Shown piece by piece: positions 8,527 to 24,677 of a stretch of DNA of 28,337 nt (within the stretch, counting starts at the first letter, position 1; every line of letters begins with the position of its first letter). The translations under genes and the position numbers were made by a program. The stretch comes from Candidatus Thorarchaeota archaeon. Lineage in GTDB: Archaea; Asgardarchaeota; Thorarchaeia; Thorarchaeales; Thorarchaeaceae. Location: assembly GCA_016839445.1 (NCBI GenBank), contig JAEOUG010000092.1, positions 1-28,337 on the forward strand, written 5' to 3'. The notes below the pieces were generated by a model. The model saw only the letters and a program-made list of their open reading frames with translations. It was not told the origin of the DNA and searched no databases.

Positions 8527-9651
8527 ATGCACCCGTTACTTGAAGAAGTTCTTGGCTCCACAAAAGCCAGGAAGGAAATCCCCAAGAGAACTAAGAAACC
8601 CCCAAAGAACGTGACTACCGATGAAGAACTGGAGAGTCTGCTGGACTCGGTAAGTGCGCGGATTCTCGTTGTTGGTGTCGGTGGTGCCGGGAACAACGCT
8701 ATCACCCGCCTGATGGAGGTGGGAATCGAAGGTGCAGAGACCCTTGCAGCTAACACTGATGCACAGGATCTCTACTTCTGTAACTCACATCACAAGCTGC
8801 TCCTTGGAAAGGAGACCTGTGGAGGCCTTGGTGCAGGAAATAACCCCGATATTGGTGAGGCTGCAGCAATCGAGACCTACGACATCATCAAGGACGTGGT
8901 CAGAGGAGATCTGGTATTCATTACGGCGGGTATGGGCGGCGGGACAGGAACAGGTGCTGCTGCGCATGTTGCCAAGGCGGCCAAAGAGAATGGTGCTCTG
9001 ACCGTAGCGATTGTATGTCTTCCCTTCGAGGTCGAAGGCGCGACTAGGAAGAGGAATGCGACCAGAGGATTGAACGCCCTGATGGAGTATGTCGACACCC
9101 TCATCGCGATTCCGAATGAGAAGCTTCTTGAGATTGCCCCGGACCTCTCACTTCCAGAAGCGTTCATGGTGGCAGATGAGGTTCTTGTGAGGGCCGTGAA
9201 GGGCATCGCTGAACTCATATCAAAACCGGGCCTGGTGAACCTGGACTTCGCAGATGTAAGAACCACGATGCGAAACGGAGGAGTCTCAATCATAGCTCTC
9301 GGAGAGGGAGAGGGCGAGAACAGGGCGGAAGAGGCAGTGGTGAACGCCCTTCGAAACCCACTAATTGATGTGTCCATCGAGAACGCCAGAAACGTACTGG
9401 TGAATGTGAGTGGTAGTGCCGACCTGCAACTCCTCGAAGCGAAGCGTGTTGTTGAGCTTGTCACAGAGCAGGTGAATCCAGAAGCAGAGGTCATCTACGG
9501 TGCGCTGATCGACCCGGCCCTTGAAGAGAAGATACGGGTCACTATCATTGCCTCAGGAGTGAGCTCACCCTATGTATTTGACAAGGCTGAGCCATTCACA
9601 CCCTTGGTTGACGACATCAAATCGGACCTAGGTGTTCCCAGACTGACGTAG
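8527..9651 (+). CDS. ftsZ: Cell division protein FtsZ (FtsZ1-type locus)
   Basis: GVGGAGNN, GMGGGTGTG and NLDFADV motifs; adjacent to secE-spt5-rpl11. Confidence 0.98.
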   Translation: MHPLLEEVLGSTKARKEIPKRTKKPPKNVTTDEELESLLDSVSARILVVGVGGAGNNAITRLMEVGIEGAETLAANTDAQDLYFCNSHHKLLLGKETCGGLGAGNNPDIGEAAAIETYDIIKDVVRGDLVFITAGMGGGTGTGAAAHVAKAAKENGALTVAIVCLPFEVEGATRKRNATRGLNALMEYVDTLIAIPNEKLLEIAPDLSLPEAFMVADEVLVRAVKGIAELISKPGLVNLDFADVRTTMRNGGVSIIALGEGEGENRAEEAVVNALRNPLIDVSIENARNVLVNVSGSADLQLLEAKRVVELVTEQVNPEAEVIYGALIDPALEEKIRVTIIASGVSSPYVFDKAEPFTPLVDDIKSDLGVPRLT

Positions 9652-9753
9652 AGTAAATTGGATACTCAGCAAACGTTAAAAGAGAACTGCCACAGAAACC
9701 AACCGATTCCTGTGGCGGCCAAGGGTCCGCCATAGAGGGACGTGATCCGGAAA

Positions 9754-9936
9754 ATGGGTGTCACTGAGTTCATCAATGAGAGCAGGCGCATTCTCAGACT
9801 GGCTACGAAGCCCTCCAGAAAGGAGCTTTGGACGAGTACAAAGATTAGCTTGCTGGCGATGGTGCTTGTCGGAGGACTCAGTTTCATAGTGCAAGTCATT
9901 ATGACTCTGGTGACCGGCAACTGGGGAACCGGCTAG
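9754..9936 (+). CDS. secE: Protein translocase SecE/Sec61 gamma
   Basis: RILRLATKPSRKE followed by one transmembrane helix; ATG at 9754, alternative GTG at 9742. Confidence 0.93.
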   Translation: MGVTEFINESRRILRLATKPSRKELWTSTKISLLAMVLVGGLSFIVQVIMTLVTGNWGTG

Positions 9937-10042: not shown

Positions 10043-10732
10043 ATGGAGACCAACACAAGCATCTATGCGGTCCGCACAACGATAGGCCAAGAGAAGGGCG
10101 TCACGGATCTGATCACCACAGCGGTCATTGGAGAGAGTGATGTCTGGGAGTGCCCTTTCTGCAAGGAGGACTTCTCATCGGAGAAGGCCACGTTGGACCA
10201 CATGAAGAAATGCAAGAAGAAGGGCAAGAAGGAAGGCGAACCCCAGCTTGTCTCCAGCAATCAACTTCTGGGGAGAGTTAAGGCAATCCTGGTTCCCGAA
10301 ACTCTGAGAGGATACGTCTTCATTGAGACCACTGAGTTCCGAGACGTCGAGATTGCCATCTCAGGTGTCCCACACGTCCGTGGACGCGTCGGGGGAAAGG
10401 TAAGTATCGAGGAGATTGACAAGTTCCTTGCACCACCTCCCGCAGCAGAGGGAATCTCAGAAGGAGACATCGTCGAGATTATCTCAGGCGCGTTCAAAGG
10501 AGAACGTGCGAAGGTACAGAGAGTTGAAGCAGGGAAGGAGGAGCTTATCCTTGAGCTTCTTGATAGTCCTGTGAGCATACCTGTCAGAGTCCATGCGGAT
10601 TTCGCCAAGATCGTTGAGAGAGCGGAGAGGCCTGCCGAAGCTGCTGAGGCCGATGAGGAAGAAGAGGCCCTCATTGATGAGGATGAGTTCGACGAGGAGG
10701 ACTCATTCTGGTCCCACGCACCTGAAGACTAG
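10043..10732 (+). CDS. spt5: Transcription elongation factor Spt5/NusG with zinc-finger insert and acidic tail
   Basis: NGN domain motifs IYAVRTTIGQE and LRGYVFIE; KOW motif GDIVEIISGAFKGE; synteny. Confidence 0.96.
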   Translation: METNTSIYAVRTTIGQEKGVTDLITTAVIGESDVWECPFCKEDFSSEKATLDHMKKCKKKGKKEGEPQLVSSNQLLGRVKAILVPETLRGYVFIETTEFRDVEIAISGVPHVRGRVGGKVSIEEIDKFLAPPPAAEGISEGDIVEIISGAFKGERAKVQRVEAGKEELILELLDSPVSIPVRVHADFAKIVERAERPAEAAEADEEEEALIDEDEFDEEDSFWSHAPED

Positions 10733-10936: not shown

Positions 10937-11446
10937 GTGAAGAACTTGAGCGAGAAACCAGTTATTGTAGAAGCCATGGTCGAAGGTGGAAAGGCCAGTG
11001 GGGGTCCCCCCATTGGGCCGGCCTTGGGACCAACAGGAGTCAACGTCTTCCAGGTTGTCACCAAGATCAACGAAGTGACACAACCCTTTACCGGGCTGAA
11101 GGTGCCAGTGAAGATCATAGTCAATCCAAGTGACAAGTCTTTCGAGGTTGAGGTGGGCACTCCGCCGACTAGCGCACTCATTCTCAAGGAAGTTGGTGCT
11201 GCAAAGGGCTCCGGAGAGCCGAACTCCGCGATTGTAGGGAACCTCACGCTGGACCAGTTGAAGAACGTTGCGAAGGGCAAGGCAAGTGACATCACTGCGC
11301 AGACAATGAAGACCGCAGTCATGACAATTGCAGGAACATGTGTTTCGATGGGGGTCACCATCGATGGGAAAAGCGCAAAGGAGTTCCAGGCAGAAGTGCG
11401 CGCTGGGTCCTATGACGAGCAACTGAGCGAACCGTTTAGGGAGTGA
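10937..11446 (+). CDS. rpl11: 50S ribosomal protein L11
   Basis: GGKASGGPPIGPALGP, PPTSAL and GTCVSMG motifs. Start may be TTG at 10946. Confidence 0.98.
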   Translation: MKNLSEKPVIVEAMVEGGKASGGPPIGPALGPTGVNVFQVVTKINEVTQPFTGLKVPVKIIVNPSDKSFEVEVGTPPTSALILKEVGAAKGSGEPNSAIVGNLTLDQLKNVAKGKASDITAQTMKTAVMTIAGTCVSMGVTIDGKSAKEFQAEVRAGSYDEQLSEPFRE

Positions 11447-11452
11447 TAGAGC

Positions 11453-12109
11453 ATGTCTTTCAATATTCGTTCAATAGAGGCTGCCGTTACTGAGGCAAGA
11501 TCCAAGGGAAAGGAGAGAGGCATCAAATTCGAGCAGAGCTTCGATGTTGCTGTCAACTTCCGTAAGAAGGAGATGGACGTTTCAAAACCTGAGAACAGAC
11601 TGAACCAGGAACTCGTTCTTCCTAATGCCCTCTATCCACCTCCAAAAGTCTGTGCCTTTGGAGATGGTGAGTTCGCCGAGAAGGCCACATCTGCGGGAGC
11701 AGAGCAGGTCGTAGGGAAGGATGACATTCCACGGCTGGGCGAGGAGAAGAAGGAGAGGAAGTCTCTGGCCAAGAGCTTTGACTTCTTCATCGCTGCAGTT
11801 GACGCAATGCCCCTGATCGGTAGGTATCTAGGGCAGGCTCTGGGGTCTCGAGGCAAGATGCCCAAACCGTTTCCACCTCAGGCCGATCTGGATGCGATTA
11901 TCAACCAGTATCATCGCACTGTTCGTGTCAGAATGAGAAACACGCCCACTTTCCACGTGAAGGTGGGTCATGAGAAGATGAGTGACAGGGAAATAGCCGA
12001 CAACATCGCCGCTGTACTGAGTATGGTACACAGCAAGGGATTCTCTGCGAGAATAAGCGACGTCCTTGTGAAGACGACGATGGGGCCGATGGTTCCCGTG
12101 ACCTACTAG
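11453..12109 (+). CDS. rpl1: 50S ribosomal protein L1
   Basis: F.QSFD, LG.RGKMP and KTTMGP motifs. Confidence 0.97.
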   Translation: MSFNIRSIEAAVTEARSKGKERGIKFEQSFDVAVNFRKKEMDVSKPENRLNQELVLPNALYPPPKVCAFGDGEFAEKATSAGAEQVVGKDDIPRLGEEKKERKSLAKSFDFFIAAVDAMPLIGRYLGQALGSRGKMPKPFPPQADLDAIINQYHRTVRVRMRNTPTFHVKVGHEKMSDREIADNIAAVLSMVHSKGFSARISDVLVKTTMGPMVPVTY

Positions 12110-12120
12110 GATGTGATGAG

Positions 12121-13137
12121 ATGTCAGTATACGAGAAGACGATTCCGCAATGGAAAATCGATGCTGTCACAAAGCTGGCCAAGGCCATCGACGATAGCGA
12201 GATGATTGGTCTCGTTAATGTAGAAGGCGTTGGCGCAAAACAGCTTCAGGGAATTCGCGATAGCCTCAGAGGTTCCGCGAATATTCGGATGGCTCGAAAC
12301 ACCTTGATGATAAGGGCCCTTGAGGAATCTAAGAAGAAGGGGATTGACCAACTGAAGGACTTCGTGTCTGGGCCAGTTGCCTTCATATTCAGCAATCAGG
12401 ATCCCTTCGCATTGAGCAAGTTCCTAAGCGAAAATAGGGCTGCTGCTCCGGCAAAGGGAGGCCAGACTGCCCCCAAGGACATCATCGTTCCCGAGATGAA
12501 CACCGGGGTAGCACCAGGACCTTTCATCAGCGAACTAGCAGGACTGAAGATCCCCTCCCGAGTAAAGGGAGGAGTGATTCACATAACGGAGGATACTGTC
12601 GCAGTCCAAGCGGGACAGGTCATTTCTAATGCAATGGCGCAGATGTTAACGCGACTCGGTATTGAACCGATGGAGCTACAACTCAAGCTCATTGCTGCCT
12701 ATACAGACGGAGATGTCCTTACACCCAAAACCTTCGAGGTGGACCTTGAGGCTCTCTTCAAGGAGTTCATCGCAGGCCACCAGTACGCAATGAACCTGTC
12801 AATCAACACCGGGATTCCCACAGTGGAAACAGCACCACTGATCATCGCCAAAGCAAACATGGAGGCGAAGAGCCTGACTCTGAAGATAGGCTTCTTCGTA
12901 CCAGAGATGCTCAACGAGTTCCTAGCAAAGGCGAACTCCGAGGCGTTTGCGTTGGCGTCAGCAGCTGCTGAGAAGGACCCCGATGCAATACCCTCTGAAC
13001 TACTCAGCCACGCAAAGGCAGCCACTGCTGCAGCAGTAGCCCCTCAGAAAGAGGAGGTCACCGCTGCAAAGGAGGAGGCCGAGGAAGAGGAAGAAGAGGA
13101 CGAAAGTGTAGCAGGCATGGGAAGCCTGTTCGGATAG
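12121..13137 (+). CDS. rplP0: 50S ribosomal protein L10/P0
   Basis: IPQWK, QLQ.IR, RNTL and NTG..PGP motifs; acidic C-terminus ending GMGSLFG. Confidence 0.97.
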
Positions 13138-23462: not shown

Positions 23463-24677
23463 GTGACCTTGGACAAGCTGGAAGTCGAATTCGCAGGGTT
23501 GCGATTCAGGAACCCCTTCATGCTATCCTCAGCCCCTCCTGCCATGGACGCCCGACATATTCTGCGTGCAGCACGTCTTGGCTGGGGTGGAGCAGTCATC
23601 AAGACTGTCACTGAGGAGCCAACTGTTGACCCGAGGGTTCGTCTAGGTGCCCTTCGGCAAGGTAAGAATCTGATTGGCATGAACAACATAGAGTTGCTCT
23701 CCAGAGAGCCGCTAAAGACCTGGACCGATGACTGGATTCCTACAATAAAGAGAGAGGCACCTGAGGACTTCATCTTGGTCGCAAGTATCATGAGTAGTCC
23801 TGAGCCCGAAGGGTGGGAGGCCTTGGCCTCGACAATGACGGCTGCAGGAGCAGATGCCATTGAGCTGAACGTCTCATGTCCGCATGGATCCCCAGAGAAG
23901 CACATGGGAGCGTTCATCGGTCAGAATCCCGACCTTGTGAAGGATGTCACTCGAGCAGCACGGAAGGGGACAGACCTCCCGCTTCTCGTGAAGCTCACTC
24001 CGAATGTGACTGATATGGTTCCCATAGCAGAAGCGGCAATCGAAGGTGGCGCCGATGGGCTCTCAGCAATAAACACGGTGGAGTCCCTCATTGGCATCGA
24101 CGTAGAAACTGCCACACCGCATCCGTTTGCCTATGGGGATGCTCCTTCAGAACCGATGAGCACCTATGGAGGATTCTGCGGTCCATCTGTACGGCCCATT
24201 GGGTTGAGATTTGTGTCCCAGATTGCACGAGCGTTTCCTGGAACACCAATCTCGGGAATCGGGGGAATAGAGGACTGGCACAGCGCAGTGGAGTACCTCA
24301 TGGTTGGAGCCAGCACATTACAGATCTGCACCGCGGCGATGTGGATGGGCTACGGGATCATCAAGGAGATGCTAGAAGGGATTGGCCAGTTCATGGAAAG
24401 GAAGGGCTACGATAGCATCCAGTCTATGGTCGGAAAGGCTCTCCCAAAGATAACATCGTGGACTGCACTCCCGAAACTACCGCCTTTGGTAGCAAAGGTT
24501 TCAGAAGAGAGATGCACAGGCTGTAAGAAGTGTGTCATTGCCTGTGCAGACGGGGGGTATGTGGCGATTCAGATGAGTGGAGGGGTCGCCGTCGTCAAAC
24601 AGGACATATGTGATGGTTGCGGTCTGTGTGCCGTCGTCTGTCCGGACTCAGCCATCGAGTTTGTACACCTGCAGTAG
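23463..24677 (+). CDS. preA: Dihydropyrimidine dehydrogenase subunit PreA/PydA (FMN barrel plus 2x[4Fe-4S])
   Basis: NPF.LSSAPP, NNIELLS, ELNVSCPHG, VKLTPNVT, and the Fe-S motifs CTGCKKCVIAC and CDGCGLCAVVC. Confidence 0.95.
   Translation: MTLDKLEVEFAGLRFRNPFMLSSAPPAMDARHILRAARLGWGGAVIKTVTEEPTVDPRVRLGALRQGKNLIGMNNIELLSREPLKTWTDDWIPTIKREAPEDFILVASIMSSPEPEGWEALASTMTAAGADAIELNVSCPHGSPEKHMGAFIGQNPDLVKDVTRAARKGTDLPLLVKLTPNVTDMVPIAEAAIEGGADGLSAINTVESLIGIDVETATPHPFAYGDAPSEPMSTYGGFCGPSVRPIGLRFVSQIARAFPGTPISGIGGIEDWHSAVEYLMVGASTLQICTAAMWMGYGIIKEMLEGIGQFMERKGYDSIQSMVGKALPKITSWTALPKLPPLVAKVSEERCTGCKKCVIACADGGYVAIQMSGGVAVVKQDICDGCGLCAVVCPDSAIEFVHLQ

Follow-up and report, generated by a model that had tools for sequence, protein, structure and literature searches.

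Proteins of the Spt5/NusG family represent, to our knowledge, the only transcription factor that is common to all cellular life, and few protein modules are known to be under tighter constraint than their NGN domain. The archaeal members (TIGR00405; structures 4zn1, 3p8b and 3lpe) are compact, measuring 147-163 amino acids (aa) in the solved cases. Here we describe the Spt5 of a Candidatus Thorarchaeota archaeon, which is encoded within a stretch of 28,337 nucleotides (assembly GCA_016839445.1, contig JAEOUG010000092.1, positions 1 to 28,337 of the forward strand) that we refer to as the window. With other archaeal Spt5 proteins it shares the NGN and KOW domains, the residues of the pocket that binds RNA polymerase (RNAP), the glutamate that contacts Spt4 and the secE-spt5-L11 locus; it differs from them in having about 44 extra residues, which carry a C2HC zinc-finger pattern and lie inside the NGN domain, and a 35-aa acidic tail that bears the motif DSFW.

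Accessory domains that are spliced into the NGN domain of a housekeeping factor have been described for the NusG proteins of Thermotoga maritima and Aquifex aeolicus, where the added domain is termed DII (PMC5224480, PMC7819879). The DII domain of Thermotoga binds nucleic acids non-specifically (double-stranded DNA at 40 nM) as well as RNAP, and it has been proposed to aid recruitment and the stability of the complex (PMC5224480). DII differs from the Thorarchaeal insert in being bacterial and much larger (residues 42-233 in Thermotoga), and the accessible text does not describe it as a zinc domain; the likeness is one of architecture only and implies no homology. A predicted structure of the full Thorarchaeal protein matches the NusG entries 1m1g, 2xhc and 2lq8 through the NGN/KOW core, and no NusG is found among the listed Foldseek matches of the isolated insert. 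In metazoan Spt6, the SID offers another parallel, i.e., a predicted C2HC finger, restricted to a clade and with an acidic surface, that sits in a nucleic-acid-binding fold of an elongation factor (PMC13289920). Here the protein is a different one, the host is an S1 domain and the organisms are eukaryotes, and the profile match between the two (E 0.93 over 13 positions) amounts to no real similarity. Spt4 (RpoE'') also presents a zinc-containing element on the same side of the Spt5 NGN domain as the insert, whose own zinc is putative. Spt4 is, however, a protein in its own right, in which four Cys residues act as ligands and a sheet of four strands continues that of the NGN domain (PMC2896526), whereas the insert is predicted to be an in-cis finger of the C2HC kind. 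A literature search found no description of a zinc finger in the NGN domain of an archaeal Spt5; supplementary files lay outside this search, and that of PMC13289920 may list Asgard Spt4 and Spt5 by lineage. In the accessible text of PMC7819879, add-ons to Spt5 are described for eukaryotes only, and DII for Thermotoga, while that of a review of the Asgard archaea treats Spt4/5 in general terms only (PMC12993045). Lineage-specific accessory domains within the NGN domain of a housekeeping Spt5/NusG are a known kind of arrangement, of which the Thorarchaeal zinc finger is an undescribed variation.

The gene was first recognized in an original prediction made from the DNA letters and their translations, which took the protein to be an Spt5 with a zinc finger inserted in its NGN domain. 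Its identity is now established by profile matches, by alignment to Methanocaldococcus jannaschii Spt5 (4zn1) and by fold comparison. Pfam Spt5-NGN matches the protein at 4.7e-17 (62.1 bits against a cut-off of 22.4) in two stretches, KOW matches after the NGN domain at residues 140-166 (1.9e-6; 27.9 bits against 22.3), and NCBIfam TIGR00405 aligns residues 78-194 to profile positions 27-143 of 145 (5e-42; 143.3 bits against 69.95). An AlphaFold2 (AF2) model of the full protein, built from an alignment of 98 sequences with a mean predicted local distance difference test score (pLDDT) of 78.7, matched the Spt5 proteins of Pyrococcus furiosus and M. jannaschii in Foldseek at E 2e-15 to 2e-13, and its NGN domain superposes on 3lpe_A with a TM-score of 0.90 and a root-mean-square deviation (rmsd) of 1.8 A. 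The parts of the gene are as follows, all on the forward strand:

10043..10732, forward strand: spt5 gene (protein P0001), 229 aa plus stop, with matches to Spt5-NGN, KOW and TIGR00405
10043..10132, forward strand: strand 1 and helix 1 of the NGN domain, residues 1-30 (AF2 strand 6-12, helix 17-30; aligned to 4zn1 residues 2-22)
10133..10270, forward strand: insert, residues 31-76, extra with respect to most Spt5 proteins, in the helix-1/strand-2 loop of the NGN domain
10142..10216, forward strand: core of the predicted C2HC beta-beta-alpha finger, residues 34-58 (AF2 strands 34-36 and 43-44, helix 47-56)
10151-10153, 10160-10162, 10199-10201 and 10211-10213, forward strand: codons of the putative ligands C37, C40, H53 and C57, respectively
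10214..10231, forward strand: lysine-rich tract KKKGKK, residues 58-63, directly after the last ligand
10235..10270, forward strand: return segment G-E-P-x-L-V-S-x-N-Q-L, residues 65-76, with a predicted strand at 68-71
10271..10447, forward strand: rest of the NGN domain, residues 77-135, including Y91, F93 and E95 (alignment to M. jannaschii Spt5)
10448..10624, forward strand: linker and KOW domain, residues 136-194 (Pfam KOW at 140-166; AF2 strands at 143-192)
10625..10729, forward strand: acidic C-terminal tail, residues 195-229 (AF2 pLDDT below 50), with DSFW, residues 220-223, at 10700-10711

The extra segment lies in the loop between helix 1 and strand 2 of the NGN domain, where the original prediction had placed it. 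In the alignment to 4zn1, residues 2-22 of the M. jannaschii protein correspond to residues 7-27 of the Thorarchaeal protein and residues 30-144 to 79-193, so that a loop of about 7 aa in the former stands against about 51 aa in the latter, an insert of about 44 aa. The insert holds the motif C37-x2-C40-x12-H53-x3-C57, followed by KKKGKK, and its three cysteines are the only ones in the whole protein. When 1.84 billion cluster representatives were searched exhaustively with HMMER, 520 relatives were found at E <= 0.001; the 150 listed among them were examined, and the length of the loop could be measured in the 105 for which both pieces of the NGN domain were located. The gap between the two pieces is 3-15 residues in 97/105 representatives (9 residues in 64 of them), as compared to 53 for the query by the same measure. 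The generalization that a typical archaeal Spt5 has only a short loop at this point therefore stands for these 97 and fails for the remaining eight, which have unrelated inserts of at least 31 aa in the same loop (gaps of 31-162 residues). The Cys/His finger pattern itself is rare, being present in only two of the 150 listed representatives (P0110 and P0121, the latter diverging after residue 128) and in none of 117 further Spt5 proteins.

Within the Thorarchaeota, the finger is conserved almost without exception. A word-indexed protein search found 622 relatives, of which the 120 listed are 78-100% identical to the query, 219-241 aa in length and Thorarchaeota Spt5 wherever a source is named; C37, C40 and C57 are kept in 120/120 of these clusters and H53 in 119/120. 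A scan of one genome per GTDB species yielded 59 loci, 57 of them with a full-length orthologue; the two left out were L055, which is cut by a contig end, and L059, which encodes a 39%-identical Spt5 that lacks the insert. All four ligands are present in 57/57 of the species genomes and their exact spacing in 56/57, the exception (L049:3001-3687) having H-x4-C rather than H-x3-C, still within the spacing of classical fingers. Conservation of the Cys and His residues in orthologues, on which the original prediction depended, is thus found throughout the species genomes and in all but one of the listed clusters. In an alignment of the insert over 57 sequences (the window and 56 distinct orthologues, with the duplicate L030 dropped), 18 of the 49 columns are invariant and the mean column identity is 79%. 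The invariant residues are G30, E31, D33, W35, C37, P38, C40, E42, F44, T50, H53, C57, L69, S71, N73, L75, G77 and R78, and G65, P67 and Q74 are conserved at 90% or more; within the insert, invariance falls on the ligands, on the core and on both junctions with the NGN domain. The ratio of nonsynonymous to synonymous divergence (dN/dS) is 0.10 for the insert, 0.11 for strand 1 and helix 1, 0.03 for the rest of the NGN domain, 0.03 for KOW and 0.39 for the tail. These values (Nei-Gojobori, ratio of means, pairs with dS < 2) are rough, as the sets of pairs differ among regions and dS is near 1.1-1.3.

The gene that carries the finger is the housekeeping spt5 and not a paralogue, since the canonical synteny is retained at every finger-bearing locus: FtsZ-SecE-Spt5-L11-L1 occurs in that order in 57/57, with SecE upstream in 57/57 and L11 downstream in 57/57. 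L11 follows spt5 in 58 of all 59 loci. For a view of its origin we drew on a tree of 80 rows over 156 core columns, in which the window was joined by every third of the 57 orthologues (19 rows) and by 60 representatives; a fill filter had removed the insert columns. Rows that bear the finger form one side of a branch (Shimodaira-Hasegawa-like approximate likelihood ratio test, SH-aLRT, 100), and the other insert-bearing representatives are scattered over the tree, which argues that the finger was gained once and that the same loop has been hit independently elsewhere. As for its source, a donor search with the 46-aa insert among proteins of 25-81 aa gave a single candidate, P0270, which is a contig-end fragment of the same Spt5 (the method detects shared 5-residue words only). 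The ESM Atlas held no usable match to residues 31-76, and a fold search of the insert in BFVD gave weak matches of the C2H2 type only (E >= 0.28), with no lead to a viral origin.

The helix-1/strand-2 loop is a recurrent insertion site. The eight representatives with other inserts there (31-162 aa) are P0122, P0134, P0136, P0143, P0173, P0184, P0230 and P0234, and the six of these that are in the tree (P0122, P0134, P0136, P0143, P0173 and P0184) are those found scattered. The inserts are varied in kind. That of P0136 has an extra KOW-like segment (Pfam KOW in two stretches), that of P0122, which is named as Heimdallarchaeota, is helical and 88 aa long, and that of P0234 has 91 aa with C-x2-C and C-x6-H-x4-H. 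The 107-aa "insert" of P0184 partly matches ribosomal protein L1 (E 2.2e-7, below the cut-off) and, instead of being a true insert, may stem from chimerism in gene calling or in assembly. In many Spt5 proteins (P0272-P0380 and others), which measure about 300-330 aa and come from Thermoplasmata where a name is given, the NGN domain is preceded by 100-200 residues that are either real N-terminal extensions or over-long gene calls. A 184-aa Spt5, P0351, is named "Candidatus Thorarchaeota archaeon" and has no finger pattern, being 69% identical to P0122 over 66%; the source names of Asgard bins are an unreliable guide to the insert-bearing clade.

The ligand spacing is that of a classical zinc finger, as had been claimed at the outset, and two of the three positions of the hydrophobic core have the expected aromatic residues. 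The classical finger consensus reads aromatic-x-C-x2-C-x3-F-x5-L-x2-H. In the Thorarchaeal proteins, the full pattern is W35-x-C37-x2-C40-x3-F44-x8-H53-x3-C57, in which W35 and F44 are invariant and occupy classical core positions. In the AF2 model of the full protein the insert has pLDDT blocks of 83-88 and the elements listed above, including the strand at 68-71; folded by itself (49 aa, 57 sequences), it has a mean pLDDT of 84, with 83-91 for the blocks of the finger, and the same elements. Both models thus predict a beta-beta-alpha finger. Among PDB structures, the first Foldseek matches to the isolated insert are BCL11A, Tramtrack, ZNF295 and the finger of a MYST acetyltransferase (rmsd 0.4-1.3 A over 22-29 columns), and a profile of the insert finds INSM1 (7.2e-6), the archaeal-virus protein B-129 (9.2e-5) and ZBTB17 (8e-4) among PDB sequences. 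In the Pfam search that had been suggested as a check on the finger and on a resemblance to UBZ (ubiquitin-binding zinc finger) domains, zf-C2H2_4 matches 57/57 members at E < 1 (best 3.2e-5), zf-MYST 51/57, zf-C2H2 and zf-C2H2_jaz 45 each and zf-C2HC_2 39/57, and no dedicated UBZ family is among the families listed. Taken together, the models and profiles predict a classical-type beta-beta-alpha finger of the C2HC variant, and we infer that it binds zinc. With C2H2 fingers and their C2HC variants (MYST, FOG-type), it shares the ligand spacing, the aromatic core and the predicted fold; it differs in being single and embedded in another domain, in having Cys as the fourth ligand and Thr at the position where Leu is usual, and in the lack of conservation on its helix face.

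The finger is followed by a basic tract whose charge is conserved and whose sequence is not. Across 58 orthologues, the tract has 6-8 residues and a mean net charge of +5.5 (range 1 to 8), with such varied forms as KKKKKKT, KKAKKKK, KKREKRD, SKAGKKK and EEKKGK. Acidic residues prevail in the finger proper, where the stretch from E31 to C57 has a mean net charge of -3.0 (range -7 to +1), and the helix positions that serve for base reading in DNA-binding fingers vary among the orthologues. Past the tract, the polypeptide runs back to the NGN domain by way of the return segment, and because its strand at 68-71 forms when the insert is folded alone, it is predicted to pack on the finger without need of the NGN domain.

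Around the insert, residues for the main contacts of an Spt5 are retained. In M. jannaschii, A4, Y42 and L44 make up a hydrophobic pocket that binds the coiled-coil of the RNAP clamp, and RNAP is bound poorly or not at all when these residues are mutated (A4R, for one, leads to a complete loss of binding); Glu46 makes a conserved contact with Spt4 (PMC2896526). The three pocket residues align to A9, Y91 and F93 of the Thorarchaeal protein, Y91 being conserved at 90% or more in the 98 sequences, and the counterpart of Glu46 is E95, whose column is among the two that are invariant in that alignment. To judge from these residues, RNAP binding and pairing with Spt4 have probably been kept, and the invariance of E95, together with the superposition of the NGN domain on 3lpe_A, argues against loss of the pairing. 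No spt4 gene is present in the window, where the small open reading frames (ORFs) with two Cys pairs are the RNase P Rpr2 gene and non-coding frames only; this is uninformative about the genome, as spt4 is normally not near spt5. Orthologues of Spt4, Spt5 and Elf1 have been reported from a set of 218 Asgard proteomes, without detail by lineage in the text (PMC13289920).

The explanation that we favor, and of which we are very confident as to the history, is that a single housekeeping Spt5 of the Thorarchaeota acquired about 44 residues once, in the ancestor of the clade, in its helix-1/strand-2 loop, and that these residues comprise a C2HC finger, a lysine tract of 6-8 residues and, packed against the finger, a return strand that is conserved and leads the chain back to strand 2. 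How this addition might work is a more tentative matter. With zinc bound, the finger would act as a small and rigid strut at the outer face of the NGN domain. Helix 1 and the edge of the sheet, which flank the insert, both contact Spt4 in the M. jannaschii complex (PMC2896526), and for this reason the strut would stand beside the Spt4 interface; at this place Spt4 faces away from the surface of the polymerase, and the upstream DNA duplex and the non-template strand lie along Spt4/5. Since the surface of the finger is acidic and its helix face variable, the lysine arm is the conserved basic element, and it may make non-specific backbone contacts with upstream DNA or nascent RNA that would stabilize the elongation complex or help to recruit Spt5. 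In Pyrococcus, four basic residues of the NGN domain contact upstream DNA and aid processivity, and these residues are described as not conserved across the archaea (PMC11162788). The DII insert of Thermotoga NusG, though unrelated, is a further precedent for such a role. We would put this mechanism of strut and lysine arm at somewhat less than an even chance.

Several observations weigh against this explanation in one or another of its parts. Fingers of the C2HC type, those of FOG and MYST among them, bind protein for the most part, and the invariant exposed residues of the Thorarchaeal finger are acidic (E31, D33 and E42), which suits contact with protein better than contact with nucleic acid. 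Three deep-branching species have only a weakly basic tract (EEKKGK, QEKKGK). The position of the finger with respect to Spt4, polymerase and DNA is argued from topology and from published work rather than from coordinates. As to the finger itself, the third core position is the invariant T50, where the classical consensus has Leu; the window member falls under the Pfam curated cut-off for every zinc-finger family (zf-C2H2_4, 20.3 as against 27 bits); and the Foldseek E-values for the isolated insert are 0.6-3, as expected when about 25 residues are aligned. One cluster, P0062, has Tyr in place of the ligand H53. It consists of four member sequences and one 1434-base contig, and its Tyr53 could be a sequencing error or a tolerated variant.

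Some of these observations would be better accommodated if the finger served to recruit protein, by docking a partner specific to the Thorarchaeota or by an extra contact with Spt4, Elf1 or a subunit of RNAP, in the manner of FOG- and MYST-type C2HC fingers and of the add-on domains of eukaryotic Spt5. The acidic invariant residues and the net charge of -3.0 would fit such a role, as would the likeness to MYST fingers (zf-MYST in 51/57 members, zf-C2HC_2 in 39/57 and MYST fingers among the first Foldseek matches) and the proximity of the insert to helix 1 and the sheet edge that contact Spt4 (PMC2896526). The metazoan Spt6 parallel points the same way, in that the electronegative surface of the C2HC finger in its S1 domain was judged incompatible with RNA binding (PMC13289920). 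On the other hand, the gene neighborhood (SecE, L11) suggests no partner, the helix face varies across orthologues, the invariant acidic residues may do no more than anchor the finger to the body of the NGN domain, and the conserved positive tract is left unexplained unless the partner is acidic. We regard recruitment of protein by the finger as unlikely on balance, and yet as the main rival.

A broader version of this idea takes in the acidic tail. The tail has a mean net charge of -12.5 across the orthologues and is predicted to be disordered, and it bears an invariant [DE]SFW, which is found within the last 15 residues in 58/58 of them and looks like a conserved, putative docking peptide. 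Related tails occur in other Spt5 proteins: the end of KOW could be mapped in 145 listed representatives, and in 32 of them the tail reaches 20 aa or more. Asp and Glu make up at least 30% of the tail in 24 of these 32, and in 21 of those 24 an aromatic residue follows acidic ones at the end (DDWAKFF, DEWAKFDGF, DVFSEFF). The insert-free Spt5 at L059:2824-3564 has the same kind of acidic tail. Finger and DSFW motif might serve as two docking sites that tether lineage-specific partners (e.g., chromatin proteins, RNA-processing factors or the ribosome) to transcribing RNAP, a recruitment platform in the eukaryotic manner, which, if true, would give the modular Spt5 of eukaryotes a precedent among the archaea. 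We consider it rather improbable. An autoinhibitory coupling of charge between the lysine tract and the acidic tail was considered separately and rejected. A raw Spearman correlation of -0.55 (p 8e-6, 58 sequences) vanishes with phylogenetically independent contrasts (r -0.15, p 0.27; opposite sign in 21/41), and a docked tail is not predicted, the tail having an AF2 pLDDT below 50.

To return to the finger, it could also be a structural element alone, a zinc clasp that lends stability to the NGN fold or to the Spt4/5 heterodimer without binding any ligand itself. The most conserved residues are indeed those of the ligands, the core and the junctions G30-E31-x-D33 and L69-x-S71-x-N73-Q74-L75-x-G77-R78; Spt4 is reported to raise the heat stability of M. 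jannaschii Spt5 (PMC2896526), and DII and the contacts among domains in Thermotoga NusG have been interpreted as thermal adaptation (PMC5224480). Nevertheless, 97 of the 105 other representatives manage with a loop of 3-15 residues, and a lysine tract conserved in charge is not accounted for by such a clasp, which we hold to be improbable as the sole role of the insert.

Replacement of Spt4 is a more radical possibility, in which the in-cis zinc module would have taken over the role of Spt4 and spt4 would have been lost from the Thorarchaeota. The putative zinc site does lie next to the Spt4-binding elements. Against this stand the invariance of E95, the equivalent of the Spt4-contacting Glu, in the 98 sequences; the predicted beta-beta-alpha C2HC fold with ligands C, C, H and C in place of the four-Cys fold of Spt4; the lack of any Spt4 family among the 12 Pfam families listed for the insert; and the report of Spt4 orthologues from a set of 218 Asgard proteomes, which is given without detail by lineage (PMC13289920). 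These points make replacement very improbable.

The suggestion in the original prediction that the finger might read ubiquitin-like modifiers as a UBZ-type domain has fared no better. The C2HC ligand set and a CPxC start are common to UBZ4 fingers, and these fingers also carry a ubiquitin-contacting Asp in the helix, two residues after the His. At the corresponding position 55 the 120 listed clusters have K (91), S (22), N (3), T (2) or R (2) and never Asp. The insert profile finds SLX4 (E 0.028), FAAP20 (E 0.7) and TAX1BP1 (E 1.6) in the PDB weakly, the first two of which speak for UBZ together with Zn-C2H2_12, the finger of autophagy receptors, in 21/57 members (best 0.0039). Models of classical C2H2 and of MYST fingers give stronger matches, and to a larger number of members; the best PDB matches are classical C2H2 fingers, and no dedicated UBZ family is found among the 12 listed for the window member or the 25 most often matched. 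The Thorarchaeota are reported to lack the Asgard ubiquitin system. In the accessible text of PMC13053709, the Heimdall and Odin lineages alone are named as having it. We give this reading a very slight probability.

That the motif might be a product of chance, of assembly or of gene calling has only the single contig of the window to speak for it, and it has next to no probability when C-x2-C-x12-H-x3-5-[HC] arises in just 7 of 200,000 shuffles of the protein and the insert is under purifying selection and present in 120 listed protein clusters and, with identical synteny, in 57 independent genomes, which disposes of the assembly artefact that the original prediction had named as a risk.

With the finger established as a conserved, predicted feature of the Thorarchaeal Spt5, its broader meaning can be considered. 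A finger that occurs throughout a clade and is under purifying selection has been added to the NGN domain of an Asgard lineage, next to a conserved acidic tail motif of which related Asgard Spt5 proteins have other forms. The gain of additional modules by Spt5, which is characteristic of eukaryotes, has thus taken place within the Asgard archaea too, independently and at a recurrent insertion site. The protein offers a compact system, of 229 aa with one finger and one lysine arm, in which added contacts at the outer face of the elongation complex could be related to processivity, pausing and the recruitment of factors. Domain-centric surveys that drop rare insertions would miss features of this kind; in PMC13289920, for example, sequences with insertions common to <5% of species were omitted.

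The neighbors of spt5 in the window whose coordinates we give are these:

8527..9651, strand not given: FtsZ gene (Pfam)
9742..9936, forward strand: secE, upstream of spt5 (Pfam SecE 1e-08)
10937..13137, forward strand: genes for L11, L1 and L10, downstream of spt5 (Pfam)

The gene for L10 is followed by that of an acidic stalk protein, and the wider gene order includes Nep1, Rpr2, S19e, a PDCD5-like protein, L31e, eIF6, prefoldin alpha, FtsY, a carbamoyltransferase and a PfkB kinase. This order agrees with the Thorarchaeota arrangement in PMC10833476. At L031:1798-2451 (reverse strand), and likewise in L023, a 217-aa ORF of unassigned function lies on the opposite strand between secE and spt5, which are about 1.4 kb apart. 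In L059 (2279-3564), from a genome named as Promethearchaeota, the insert-free Spt5 (246 aa) directly follows an ORF that resembles aIF-1A by eye, and neither SecE nor L11 is found within the surrounding 6.4 kb, so that this genome departs from the canonical locus. In the window itself, the finger pattern has a second six-frame match at 23877-24062 on the reverse strand, with the spacing C-x2-C-x12-H-x5-C; it lies antisense to a dihydroorotate dehydrogenase-like gene (23463-24677) and is taken to be due to chance.

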